From: Escherichia phage SkaterBoy_Bas90
Strand: one strand, 5' to 3'
Sequence record: PQ850626.1
DNA: 64,000 nt
The position numbers were made by a program, and so were the translations under genes. The notes under the pieces were generated by a model that saw only the letters and a list, made by a program, of their open reading frames with translations, was not told where the DNA came from and searched no databases. Of the stretch, positions 37,026-48,174 are shown piece by piece (position 1 is the stretch's first letter; every line of letters begins with the position of its first letter).

Positions 37026-38870
37026 TTAGTGTGTGTGCATCCAGTTAAGTCCAATCTGACAATCAGATGCCAGAGGACATTCCATGTTCAGATACTCGCC
37101 AGCTTTCTTAACACAAAGCTCAGTGTGCTCTTTGAGTTTCTGTACATCATTACGGTTTACTGAGAATTGACCTTCATCGTGCATATCAATTACCTTAGCA
37201 CAACGAACCTTATCTTTCTCAATCCACTTGTTAAGGAACATCATAGCATATTTCATAACAACAGCACCAGCACATTGCAGGAGTGTGTTAAGGGCTTTAT
37301 GAACCATAACCTTACCAGTGGCATCCCGTCTCATTGTAATCTTACGACCATCAACTCCAATCAAGTATCCTTGAGCAGCTTTCTCTGTCATACGATCAAT
37401 GAGGATTGCAATACATGGGTTCTCTGCTAAGAAACGTGCTCGCATCACTGAACCTTCGTCAGCCCCACCACCTACAATTGAACCAAGCTTAGCATCGCCA
37501 GCACCGTAGTTGAATGCATAGATAAACGTTTTAGCGTTGTCACGAGTAGGAAGACCAGCAAGTTTCTGGTTGTGGGAGTGGATATCACCTTCAAGGAGAA
37601 TATCACGATACATAATAGCAGAAGCTAAACCACGTTCTGCCAGAGCTTTCTTAGCTGGGTTGTTCTCTTCAATTGCCTCAGCAAGCATATCCCTACACTC
37701 TTTAATGAGGTAGTGAGCGAGCATACGAAGTTCAAGTCCAGAACCATCATACCCCAAGAATACTTCTTTACCAGCGGGTATGTAATATTTGTAAGCGCCT
37801 ACAGGTTTGTCTTTCTTCCCCGGCTTACCTTTCTCGTAAATTACGTTAGTACCTTTTCGTATATAACAACCATCAGGAACAACGTTAGTAATAACGAAAG
37901 GACGAGAGTGATCACTGTCTGAGTTATAGTCAGACTCAAACAAACTGCGACACTCGTGACCAAACAAACCACGGGAGGGAATATTAACCACGATACGATG
38001 TTTGAATCGAAAAGTTGGCGTAGCGCAGCTGTTAGCTTCTGCCGAAAGTTTACCATCTTCGCGTTCCTTTGCTATGAGTCCACTGATAAGACCTAGCCTG
38101 TGAGCCGCTACAACGCGTCTCTTAAGCAAACTTCCGACACTCCCTAGCTCACCCCCTAACCCTTCTTCAAGAGTCTCCTCGAGGTTTGTAGGAGCTGTAG
38201 GCCACTTGTTTGATGTGGCTAGTGCTTTCTTAATCTCATCAAACGTTACAGGATTACGACGATTCGGGTTTAATCCCAAACCAAATACGTAAGCCTTCAT
38301 ATAATTCTTAGTTTTAAACCTGAAATGCTTTTCTAAGAACTTCTTAATATCAGCGTCAACCATCTCGGCTGTCTGCTTCTGCTTAGCATTGCCTCGCATC
38401 CAAGCAGTATACCATGCTTGGTACGTTCCATACTTTCTCATATCTTTCTTAATTTCGAAAGTATTCCAAGGCTTCTTAGATACGTTAAACTCTGGAGGAA
38501 GAAAGCCCTCATCCATAAGAGCTTCTTTAACTCGTGCATCTTTCGATGGGTCAAAGTCTACGTATTCGACACAGGTGAAAGCTCCACCAATATCTTCTCT
38601 CTTCAGCCCAACCCTATCACAATAGGCTTGAGGCCACTTCTGTAAAGCTCCAGACTTCTTAAACGGCTTCATGTAAGTAGAGCCGTCTAATCTCATCTTA
38701 GGTAAGAGAGGAATCAACTCTCTGTCAATATTAACAATAATCTCTTTAAGGAGGTGAACATACCACCGAGCATTTCTTCGGTTGAAACTCACTCCGTGCT
38801 TTGCTTGCTTAGAGATTATATCAGCGACAGTCATCTCTGTCAAAAATGGAAGAGCGTCCGGGTTGCTCAC
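37026..38870 (-). CDS. DNA polymerase, family A (polymerase domain only)
   Basis: 614 aa; motif A 'YDGSGLELRMLAHY', motif B 'RDNAKTFIYAFNYGAG', motif C 'VIDMHDEGQF'; no DEDD exonuclease motifs. Confidence 0.85.
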   Translation of the reverse strand: MSNPDALPFLTEMTVADIISKQAKHGVSFNRRNARWYVHLLKEIIVNIDRELIPLLPKMRLDGSTYMKPFKKSGALQKWPQAYCDRVGLKREDIGGAFTCVEYVDFDPSKDARVKEALMDEGFLPPEFNVSKKPWNTFEIKKDMRKYGTYQAWYTAWMRGNAKQKQTAEMVDADIKKFLEKHFRFKTKNYMKAYVFGLGLNPNRRNPVTFDEIKKALATSNKWPTAPTNLEETLEEGLGGELGSVGSLLKRRVVAAHRLGLISGLIAKEREDGKLSAEANSCATPTFRFKHRIVVNIPSRGLFGHECRSLFESDYNSDSDHSRPFVITNVVPDGCYIRKGTNVIYEKGKPGKKDKPVGAYKYYIPAGKEVFLGYDGSGLELRMLAHYLIKECRDMLAEAIEENNPAKKALAERGLASAIMYRDILLEGDIHSHNQKLAGLPTRDNAKTFIYAFNYGAGDAKLGSIVGGGADEGSVMRARFLAENPCIAILIDRMTEKAAQGYLIGVDGRKITMRRDATGKVMVHKALNTLLQCAGAVVMKYAMMFLNKWIEKDKVRCAKVIDMHDEGQFSVNRNDVQKLKEHTELCVKKAGEYLNMECPLASDCQIGLNWMHTH

Positions 38871-38886
38871 TTTATACTCCTTTAAA

Positions 38887-39309
38887 TTATTGGTAAAGTA
38901 AATCTGTAAATGCTTGGTTATCTTCTACTACATTCAACATGGTAGCTTCATCACTATAAGCCCTAACCGTCCCGTTGACAACTGTCCAAGGAGGAGGTGG
39001 AGGTGGTGCATGGTTAGCCCTATCTTCACGAGGTTGCTCTCGTACTAAATGAGCCACAACCCTCTGATTAGCAACTTCTTCTCTTTCTCTGATAGCTCTC
39101 TGAATGTAGGCCAGCTTCATGCCCCAAGCTTCTTCAAACTCTTGAGGGTGTTTATCACTGATAACAACATACTGACGTTCAGTAATACCAGAGCGAATTT
39201 CTGATAATAATTCATGGAACAAATCCAGTTCATGTTCAGTGAGATTCATTTCGATATCATCCCACTTGAGAACTAAGAAACGGTTTGGATATCTAGCTGG
39301 TAATGGCAT
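38887..39309 (-). CDS. hypothetical protein
   Basis: 140 aa, poly-Pro 'APPPPPPW'. Confidence 0.45.
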   Translation of the reverse strand: MPLPARYPNRFLVLKWDDIEMNLTEHELDLFHELLSEIRSGITERQYVVISDKHPQEFEEAWGMKLAYIQRAIREREEVANQRVVAHLVREQPREDRANHAPPPPPPWTVVNGTVRAYSDEATMLNVVEDNQAFTDLLYQ

Positions 39310-39310
39310 C

Positions 39311-39469
39311 CTACTCCACCTCTACTTCAATGTAAGTTCTCTCGCCAACATCGTCTTTTAAGACCCATGACTTGGCATCTTCTTCCGACTTAAAAGCTTT
39401 CACAACGCTGTATCCGCCTTCCCATTCATCGCCGAACCAGCGCTGTCCTACGTAAATGTATTCTTTCAT
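39311..39469 (-). CDS. small hypothetical protein (52 aa)
   Basis: hand-translated MKEYIYVGQRWFGDEWEGGYSVVKAFKSEEDAKSWVLKDDVGERTYIEVEVE. Confidence 0.3.
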   Translation of the reverse strand: MKEYIYVGQRWFGDEWEGGYSVVKAFKSEEDAKSWVLKDDVGERTYIEVEVE

Positions 39470-46292: not shown

Positions 46293-46301
46293 TCTTATTC
46301 C

Positions 46302-47615
46302 TTAGTTATTTGTTTCCATGTCAAAAGAGATTCCACGACCCGCTTCATCGGCAAACCGAACTGTACGGGTTTGAGGTTCTAATACTTCAGGGTTGTTAGC
46401 AATAAAGCGATCAGCGAGACTATCTCCCAAATCTTGTTCCATACCTTCATCAGTCCAGATAACACGAGAAGGGGCGTTGATATCACCAACAGCGAAACCC
46501 TGACCAGAGAACTGACGTGCGCTAACAGTTAAGCCGTTTGGTCGACCACGAGAGGGTCTAGCCATCCATCGCTCCATAGAATCACTTGTAATACCAAGAG
46601 CTTCTTCAAAAGATGTTCTACGAGTAGGGCTTTCTCTTCGTGACTCTTGTGCTCGACGCATTGCAGGGGCTACAAACACCCCTTCAATTGCATTGTGTCG
46701 GTTAGGTTCCTCTTCTCGACCAAGCAGATCACCACCCGTGTTAGTCGTTAAATTTGTCAACCCCTCAGACCAATACGCATGAATCTGACCAGAACCGTGA
46801 AGACTAGACATAATCTGAATCTCTTCATAAGGGATTCCAAAGAATCGACTCATGTCTCGGTTAACACAATATAGAGCACTTGTTGTATCTTCAATAAGAG
46901 AAACCTGACCTAATCCATTGACTAGATGACTAACTGGCTGAGGTGTGGGAAGATATCGAGTTTGGGCCATGTATTGATGCGCAACTGCTGGAGAGGAAAA
47001 TCTCAACACTTGTGAGTTAGGCCACTTCTTGTGAACATACATGATTTCACGACTAGAGACAACCACTGGACAAGGGGAAGTCATAGCCAAATATCCGTGA
47101 GAAGTCATGAATAAGTTGTCAAGAGTCATCGCACCACGGCACATCATAGGAAAATTATCCAATACCTCTTCAATAGAAGTAGGATAATTAAACATGAATT
47201 GGATACGAACCCCATTCCACTGAAACTCAATAATATCAGTGAATGTTAATTGAGAACCCCCAGCATAGGATTCGTTTGTAGCTTCAGCAAGAAGTGATGC
47301 ATATTCAATATCTTGTGACTCTAGCCATTCCTTCACATTACTTTCAATCTCCCGTCCAAGCTCTTGCCAACGATCAGTTGGGATGAAAGTGTTTTGAGTT
47401 CTTGGTGTTTGTCCTCTGACAATAAAGATATCAATGTCATGTGGAGCTATGTTATTAAGGACAGCATCACGAACAGCCCCACCAGTAATGATGGGACAGA
47501 TACCATCTGGAATCAAGTTGTTGTTAATCAACTGTTCAATGAAGTGACGACCAACAGTGATATCAGGTTGTTGAGCAACCTTATCTTCAATTTGGTTAAT
47601 CGGGATAACAATCAT
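46302..47615 (-). CDS. Pol-beta-superfamily nucleotidyltransferase with CCA-adding/poly(A)-polymerase-like head domain
   Basis: 'ITGGAVRDAVLNN...HDIDIFIV' (GGAVRD + DxD); start set to ATG 47615 coupled to exonuclease stop (track start 47672). Confidence 0.5.
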   Translation of the reverse strand: MIVIPINQIEDKVAQQPDITVGRHFIEQLINNNLIPDGICPIITGGAVRDAVLNNIAPHDIDIFIVRGQTPRTQNTFIPTDRWQELGREIESNVKEWLESQDIEYASLLAEATNESYAGGSQLTFTDIIEFQWNGVRIQFMFNYPTSIEEVLDNFPMMCRGAMTLDNLFMTSHGYLAMTSPCPVVVSSREIMYVHKKWPNSQVLRFSSPAVAHQYMAQTRYLPTPQPVSHLVNGLGQVSLIEDTTSALYCVNRDMSRFFGIPYEEIQIMSSLHGSGQIHAYWSEGLTNLTTNTGGDLLGREEEPNRHNAIEGVFVAPAMRRAQESRRESPTRRTSFEEALGITSDSMERWMARPSRGRPNGLTVSARQFSGQGFAVGDINAPSRVIWTDEGMEQDLGDSLADRFIANNPEVLEPQTRTVRFADEAGRGISFDMETNN

Positions 47616-47616
47616 T

Positions 47617-48174
47617 TTACATTTTCCAATATAATGAAGGTGGGTCGTAAGGGTCAAATCCCGTGAGTTCACACAAGAAAAGATAAACCTTAACAGTTAA
47701 GTTAACGTCCTGTTCACAATAAGTAAACATATCTTCAGTGAAAGCATCCCATGCTTCCTCTTGCTCACCGTAGTCACCTTTAAGTTCCTCTAAGAACTCA
47801 CCCCATTGCTTCAAACCATGACCTCTTGGGCCACGTCTAGGGTCGCCTTTCGGATACTCAGGACTGTCACCAATACGGTCAGGTTTAAGATATCGACTAA
47901 GACATAAAGTGTCAAAGACGTTAAAATTATATTTAATCAAAGAGGGATACATCTTTTTCAGAGCAGGTAAGTCGAAGTCAATAATATTATGACCCACTAG
48001 TACATCTGCTTCTGTAAGTTTACGAATCCCATCTTCAATTTGGTGAGGCCGATAGCCCCACCTTTCACCAGTTTCAACATCAAAGATATAAATACACCAT
48101 ACTTTAGTTATGTCATCGTACAGTGCATTACTCTCGATATCGAATGCAAACACTTTCTTCTTTTTCTTTACCAC
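47617..48174 (-). CDS. 3'-5' exonuclease (DEDDy, Pol A proofreading-type), encoded separately
   Basis: Exo I 'FAFDIESN', Exo II '[12 protein letters not shown]', Exo III 'YCEQDV'. Confidence 0.7.

Follow-up and report, generated by a model that had tools for sequence, protein, structure and literature searches.

Does a phage that carries a family A DNA polymerase and a 3'-5' exonuclease in two distant genes possess one proofreading replicase in two pieces, or a polymerase that lacks proofreading? This question is raised by Escherichia phage SkaterBoy_Bas90 (sequence record PQ850626.1), of which a stretch of 64,000 nucleotides, hereafter the window, was analyzed. An initial annotation made from the letters alone had placed the polymerase open reading frame (ORF) at 37026-38870 and the exonuclease ORF at 47617-48174, about 9 kb apart. 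Both ORFs were confirmed, on the minus strand, and 8,746 bp lie between the exonuclease gene end and the polymerase gene start, an interval in which the related phage vB_EcoP_SU10 (SU10) has 23 annotated genes. We consider it likely, from homology and from analogy with a split polymerase that has been modeled before, that the two products make up a two-subunit replicase in which the exonuclease binds the polymerase non-covalently, at the position of the exonuclease domain in T7 gp5, and edits the primer end.

The polymerase was compared with Pfam, with solved structures and with T7 gp5. Its sole Pfam match is DNA_pol_A over residues 361-611 (E 2.5e-23), and the three catalytic motifs align with their T7 counterparts: motif A is D375 in DGSGLELR (T7 D475), motif B is R443/K447/Y451 in RDNAKTFIYAFNYGAG (RDNAKTFIY; T7 R518/K522/Y526) and motif C is H564-D565-E566 (T7 H653-D654-E655), all of them invariant in 62 homologs. 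The best sequence match among solved structures is T7 gp5 (E 1.2e-32), and the matching pieces span its residues 289-357 to 490-698, which cover thumb, palm and fingers. The AlphaFold2 model, with a predicted local distance difference test score (pLDDT) of 91.9, has a right-hand fold like that of T7 gp5, and T7 gp5 chains make up all of the top 27 Foldseek matches in the PDB, with E values reaching 4e-26. The protein starts at the equivalent of T7 gp5 residue ~207, and in the alignment its first 300 residues correspond to the thumb and palm of T7, with the conserved thumb motif FDPSKDARVKEALMDEGFLP (T7: FNPSSRDHIQKKLQEAGWVP) among them. The idea that residues 1-360 are something other than polymerase was rejected, since they align with the thumb and palm of T7 gp5, FNPS...G(W/F).P motif included. 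The ratio of nonsynonymous to synonymous substitution rates (dN/dS) of the polymerase gene, measured against SU10 and phage YW01, is 0.014-0.03.

The exonuclease matches Pfam DNA_pol_A_exo1 (E 2e-8), PHROG families 403 and 38876, both named 'DNA polymerase exonuclease subunit', and residues 3-178 of T7 gp5 (E 1e-11). Exo I is D12/E14, aligned to T7 D5/E7 and to D355/E357 of the Klenow fragment; Exo II is H62-N63...D68, aligned to T7 H59-N60...D65 and Klenow D424; and Exo III is Y152/D156, aligned to T7 Y170/D174 and Klenow Y497/D501. Across 35 stand-alone homologs, which are 32-80% identical to the window exonuclease, Exo II is invariant, as are the four acidic residues D12, E14, D68 and D156, and Y152 is conserved in at least 90%. 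The AlphaFold2 model (pLDDT 93.3) has an RNase H-like fold, and the T7 gp5 exonuclease domain accounts for all 27 of its top matches in the PDB (E 5e-11; query-normalized TM-scores 0.65-0.72). The dN/dS against SU10 and YW01 is 0.03-0.11. Sequence and predicted structure together identify the protein as a homolog of the N-terminal exonuclease domain of T7 gp5. Because both models are confident, the catalytic residues are conserved and both genes are under purifying selection, both proteins are predicted to be functional and an inactive relic or pseudogene is excluded. It is hardly credible that the split is an artefact of assembly or frameshift error, or that either ORF is a decaying pseudogene remnant of a polymerase that was once fused: dozens of independently sequenced phages have both ORFs at equal lengths, 23 genes intervene between the two and selection maintains both.

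Nothing that could stand for a hidden exonuclease domain was found at the polymerase gene. The polymerase ORF matched no Pfam exonuclease family, an hhalign comparison of the exonuclease-family profile with the polymerase-family profile gave no match (probability 0.45%), and neither did the comparison of the 140-aa (amino acid) ORF directly upstream of the polymerase with the exonuclease profile (probability 0.64%). A six-frame hidden Markov model (HMM) search of the whole 64 kb returned one exonuclease and one polymerase, and nothing further under E = 0.2. As Pfam and hhalign gave no match and the six-frame search showed only the copy at 47.6 kb, a degenerate exonuclease domain in or just upstream of the polymerase ORF was rejected. 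On the profile of PHROG 17, which represents full-length phage polymerases, the exonuclease occupies positions 667-826 and the polymerase positions 836-1233, consecutively and without overlap. When concatenated, the two proteins are collinear with T7 gp5 over its residues 1-704 and meet near T7 residue 205. As judged by these alignments, the replicase is a family A polymerase of the T7 gp5 type, and the break in its ancestral gene fell where the exonuclease domain meets the polymerase domain. The initial annotation had described a polymerase with motifs A, B and C and without DEDD exonuclease motifs, which Pfam and the T7 alignment bear out, and a separate Pol-I-type DEDDy exonuclease adjoining the primase-helicase, which agrees with the alignment of Exo I, II and III to T7 and Klenow. 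The alignment that it had proposed was thereby carried out, against T7 gp5 for both proteins and against Klenow for the exonuclease, with the motifs corresponding, and the degenerate N-terminal exonuclease domain that it had named as the counter-case was looked for and not detected.

In a two-subunit replicase, the 185-aa exonuclease would dock onto the polymerase where T7 gp5 holds its exonuclease domain. Once docked, it would proofread the primer terminus and also stabilize the polymerase fold, and the enzyme would operate in a T7-like replisome with the gp4-type primase-helicase. That the two proteins form a physical complex and that proofreading takes place in trans we infer from homology and from the model published for cyanophage S-SBP1. 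The sequence evidence favors such an enzyme over an exonuclease-deficient polymerase because the catalytic residues are intact, dN/dS is low and the two halves together reconstitute T7 gp5 collinearly. This reading rests also on the finding that the two genes occur together in each lineage examined and on two published results, namely that AlphaFold2 predicts the split T7-like PolA of S-SBP1 to reassemble like the fused enzyme and that PolAs reportedly depend on the exonuclease domain for their stability (PMC10201439).

We regard it as unlikely that the polymerase alone is an effectively exonuclease-deficient replicase, with the 185-aa DEDDy protein acting as an independent nuclease, for instance one that trims primers or flaps, takes part in recombination or degrades host DNA. 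The DEDD fold is found as well in free-standing exonucleases such as ExoI and TREX, and these appear lower in the list of fold matches, but in both sequence and fold the closest relatives of the window exonuclease are T7-type domains attached to a polymerase rather than free nucleases. An independent nuclease would suit two genes that lie 8.7 kb apart without co-translation, that are separated by two terminator-like hairpins on the coding strand of the gap (44177-44149 and 40079-40054) and whose recombination histories differ in YW01. Nevertheless, an exonuclease-less polymerase and a stand-alone exonuclease co-occur, in conserved order, in all four of the lineages examined, and family A polymerases are reported to require an exonuclease domain structurally (PMC10201439).

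The comparison with relatives suggests how the two halves came apart. Exonuclease-less homologs of the polymerase (37-87% identity, including the LUZ24-like 'DNA polymerase part II') all begin within ~10-20 residues of one position, and exactly at this shared breakpoint the nearest fused relatives (P0115, P0116 and P0119) have an exonuclease domain attached without interruption, 36% identical to the window exonuclease. On the contig examined for P0116 the fused polymerase gene is found downstream of that for the primase-helicase, a single ligase-like gene intervening, and in T7 gene 5 lies downstream of gene 4. The order helicase, exonuclease, gap and polymerase, all on one strand, is found with a gap of 2.3 kb in LUZ24, 6.2 kb in Aeromonas phage BUCT695, 8.7 kb in the window and 9.6 kb in Aeromonas phage LAh_6; LUZ24, BUCT695 and LAh_6 all retain the helicase-exonuclease pair. 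The gaps of the larger genomes have a dCTP deaminase and a Dps-like 'DNA-binding protein' in common, and those of the window, SU10 and LAh_6 contain PhoH and a thymidylate synthase.

The simplest reading of these gene orders is that the gene broke once, long ago, at the domain boundary and that other genes then accumulated at the breakpoint; by the same comparisons the split is older than the separation of several phage genera and families. The exonuclease half would have kept its place directly downstream of the primase-helicase, where fused relatives hold the whole polymerase. The polymerase half would have stayed downstream on the same strand, displaced stepwise as nucleotide-metabolism and small genes gathered at the breakpoint, and the series of gaps from 2.3 through 6.2 and 8.7 to 9.6 kb makes a neat case of fission and subsequent accretion. 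When the 150 best cluster representatives of exonuclease relatives were considered, 82 had at least 550 aa (fused) and 36 had at most 250 aa (stand-alone size); to judge from these lengths, stand-alone T7-type exonucleases are a sizeable minority and no rarity. The polymerases of the split lineage share two structured insertions, at ~130-224 in the thumb and at ~314-365 before motif A, both modeled by AlphaFold2 with high confidence and both absent from the fused relatives P0115 and P0116.

Several observations weigh against a two-subunit replicase. The exonuclease is coupled genetically to the helicase gene and not to the polymerase gene. The exonuclease gene begins with GTG at 48174 and thus shares 7 nt with the end of the primase-helicase gene (stop codon 48168-48170), with GGAG lying 7 nt upstream of the start, and because of this overlap the exonuclease is probably translationally coupled to the primase-helicase gene. 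Phage YW01 is a mosaic in which the exonuclease differs from that of the window by a synonymous divergence (dS) of 0.59 (90.6% amino-acid identity) and the polymerase by a dS of only 0.09. Since the YW01 exonuclease is far more diverged than its polymerase, the two halves are, on this sequence comparison, recombining independently, and therefore any exonuclease-polymerase interface must tolerate mix-and-match partners. In addition, the literature searched yielded no biochemical work on a split polymerase of the Kuravirus or LUZ24 type.

The coupling to the helicase bears on another arrangement, in which the exonuclease is recruited mainly through the primase-helicase and edits in trans as a shared factor, in a manner somewhat comparable to the epsilon subunit of E. 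coli DNA polymerase III (Pol III), without re-forming the arrangement of T7 gp5. The exonuclease start that overlaps the helicase stop and has its own Shine-Dalgarno sequence would fit this arrangement, as would the separate recombination history implied by the strongly diverged YW01 exonuclease, and the helicase-exonuclease pair is the most conserved part of the gene order. We nonetheless hold it to be quite improbable: a small ORF lies between the two genes in LAh_6 and an annotated gap of ~430 bp, with no overlap, in YW01, the site beside the helicase is more simply the ancestral location of the whole polymerase gene, and no T7-type helicase is known to bind an exonuclease domain. Little probability is likewise given to the exonuclease being a detachable and exchangeable proofreading module, co-translated with the primase-helicase, that docks through the two insertions of the split lineage (~130-224 and ~314-365). 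If this were true, the fission would have been more than neutral: fidelity might be tuned through the stoichiometry of exonuclease to polymerase, or exonuclease alleles might be swapped by recombination, the latter being hinted at by the mosaic pattern of YW01.

Among known systems, T7 gp5 is the best match in sequence and fold for both halves of the replicase. The catalytic residues are of the same type, including Y451 (T7 Y526), and both phages pair the polymerase with a gp4-type primase-helicase. In contrast to the window replicase, T7 gp5 is a single polypeptide; the window polymerase has the large insertions at ~130-224 and ~314-365, and the window phage encodes its own thioredoxin, whereas T7 gp5 uses host thioredoxin as its processivity factor. 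In E. coli Pol III, the alpha subunit and the epsilon subunit (DnaQ), that is, polymerase and DEDD proofreader, are also separate polypeptides encoded at distant loci. However, the Pol III polymerase belongs to the unrelated family C, and epsilon is a DEDDh enzyme whereas the window exonuclease is DEDDy; the resemblance is one of analogy, not of homology. The split PolA of S-SBP1, a type found in cyanopodoviruses (Czernecki et al., NAR 2023, PMC10201439), belongs to the T7 cluster and is likewise divided at the domain boundary, with re-association expected. Its two genes are adjacent and overlapping and stem from a recent 1-nt frameshift, whereas those of the window are separated by 8,746 bp and 23 genes.

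The arrangement of separate polymerase and exonuclease genes is already known: it has appeared in print, RefSeq annotates it and the name of a PHROG family reflects it. Separate genes for the polymerase, the 5'-3' exonuclease and the 3'-5' exonuclease were reported as common to all members of the Kuravirus group and their relatives (PMC9965538). In all LUZ24-group phages the polymerase and the proofreading exonuclease have separate genes, and for phiEco32 the same organization is given there with reference to Savalia et al. 2008 (PMC3517423, PLoS One 2012). RefSeq names SU10 gp075 'DNA polymerase exonuclease subunit'. As the arrangement has been published and annotated, its presence in the window has little bearing on discovery. 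The genes, their lengths, order and spacing are the same in the Kuravirus phages SU10 (gp051 'DNA polymerase', and gp075) and YF01 (gp49 and gp70), and the window replicase shows no difference of substance from the Kuravirus one.

The 11-kb region that contains both genes is 98.6% identical in nucleotides to Escherichia phage FS2B and 96.7% identical, with identical gene order, to SU10, which is classified in Caudoviricetes, Gordonclarkvirinae, Kuravirus. It is matched by 99 phage records, nearly all of Escherichia and Shigella phages, 59 of which cover at least 80% of the region. Because of the 96.7% identity and the gene order shared with SU10, the window is assigned to one further Kuravirus isolate, a phiEco32/SU10-like podophage.

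In the LUZ24 group (Bruynoghevirus; gp25 exonuclease subunit, gp34 and gp36 polymerase parts), the breakpoint, strand, gene order and overlapping helicase-exonuclease pair are as in the window, and the polymerases are 39-43% identical to that of the window. The LUZ24 gap is merely 2.3 kb and its polymerase is cut a second time by an insert with an endonuclease gene in it, whereas the window polymerase is uninterrupted and has two extra segments, at residues 147-168 and 389-416. This second cut, near motif B, is seen both in LUZ24 (7827-10133) and in BUCT695 (22705-25174). Some Kuravirus-like contigs encode polymerase proteins of ~450 aa (P0014-P0017) that cover 72-74% of the window polymerase.

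The features of the region are collected in Table 1. The gap encodes a CCA-adding-like nucleotidyltransferase, a dCTP deaminase, a Dps/ferritin-like protein, a thioredoxin, ThyX, a LigA domain-Ia protein, PhoH and many small ORFs, and related genera have a partly conserved gene module at the same place.

Table 1. Features in and around the split replicase region, in window coordinates.
Feature	Position	Strand	Evidence or remark
5'-3' exonuclease, FEN-type, 280 aa	29335-30177	-	PHROG 107 'exonuclease', E 4.8e-65
ORF with acidic tail, 248 aa	33079-33825	-	PHROG 6599
Family A (T7-type) DNA polymerase, polymerase domain only, 614 aa	37026-38870	-	Pfam, PHROG, T7 gp5 alignment, AlphaFold2
Exact sigma-70 consensus with extended -10	38815-38843	-	inside 5' end of polymerase gene, 27 nt downstream of start codon
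Gap between exonuclease and polymerase	38871-47616	-	same strand as both genes
Small paralog pair, 94 and 84 aa	39473-40013	-	
LigA N-terminal NAD+-binding domain Ia alone, 107 aa	41871-42194	-	Pfam Nlig-Ia, E 5e-35
Thioredoxin, 91 aa, CAPC active site	43660-43935	-	Pfam Thioredoxin, E 1.8e-13
Three tandem small paralogs, 69, 69 and 65 aa	45143-45758	-	
Nucleotidyltransferase, 456 aa	46302-47672	-	immediately downstream of exonuclease; PHROG 12715, E 1e-244
Stand-alone DEDDy 3'-5' exonuclease, 185 aa	47617-48174	-	Pfam, PHROG, T7 gp5 alignment, AlphaFold2
Primase-helicase, T7 gp4-type, 596 aa	48168-49958	-	Pfam/PHROG; stop codon overlaps exonuclease start

The nucleotidyltransferase has a weak match to the head domain of CCA-adding enzymes and poly(A) polymerases (Pfam PolyA_pol, E 0.0023), and its C-terminal ~250 residues carry no assigned domain. 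The LigA-like protein is annotated in SU10 as 'NAD-dependent DNA ligase'. Its adenylation and OB domains are absent, and it may modulate the host ligase rather than be a ligase itself. Phage thioredoxin has been hypothesized to act as a processivity factor in phages of the C3 morphotype (PMC7881722), and the window polymerase is weakly similar to T7 gp5 around the thioredoxin-binding loop. The third Pol-I-type activity, the 5'-3' exonuclease, is likewise carried by a separate gene, whose product also matches Pfam 5_3_exonuc_N at E 5.8e-7, under the gathering score; the equivalent gene of phage YF01 has been described (PMC9965538).

The 248-aa ORF ends in an acidic tail with a C-terminal phenylalanine (...YEDDNDSPF). 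The primase-helicase ends in ...ADGASPW, and T7 gp4 has an acidic tail with a terminal aromatic residue (...SNDTDF). T7 gp2.5 also has an acidic tail and a terminal aromatic residue, and in T7 such tails bind the polymerase. The idea, taken from its tail, that the 248-aa ORF encodes a gp2.5-type single-stranded DNA-binding protein found no support: BLASTP against T7 gp2.5 was empty and neither Pfam nor PHROG gave a function.

The sigma-70 consensus inside the polymerase gene (TTGACA, 17 nt, TG.TATAAT) is the only exact match in the 64-kb window, with 0.05 expected by chance, and the polymerase genes of SU10 and YW01 have the same exact match at the same place. It overlaps codons of conserved residues (LTEMTVADII) and could be either a coding coincidence or an internal promoter of the downstream genes. 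Two sets of small paralogs lie within the gap: the three tandem ORFs all end in ...Y(Y/H)Y, and the other two share the motif ...LR(D/G)(S/A)(K/D)GKFISY...

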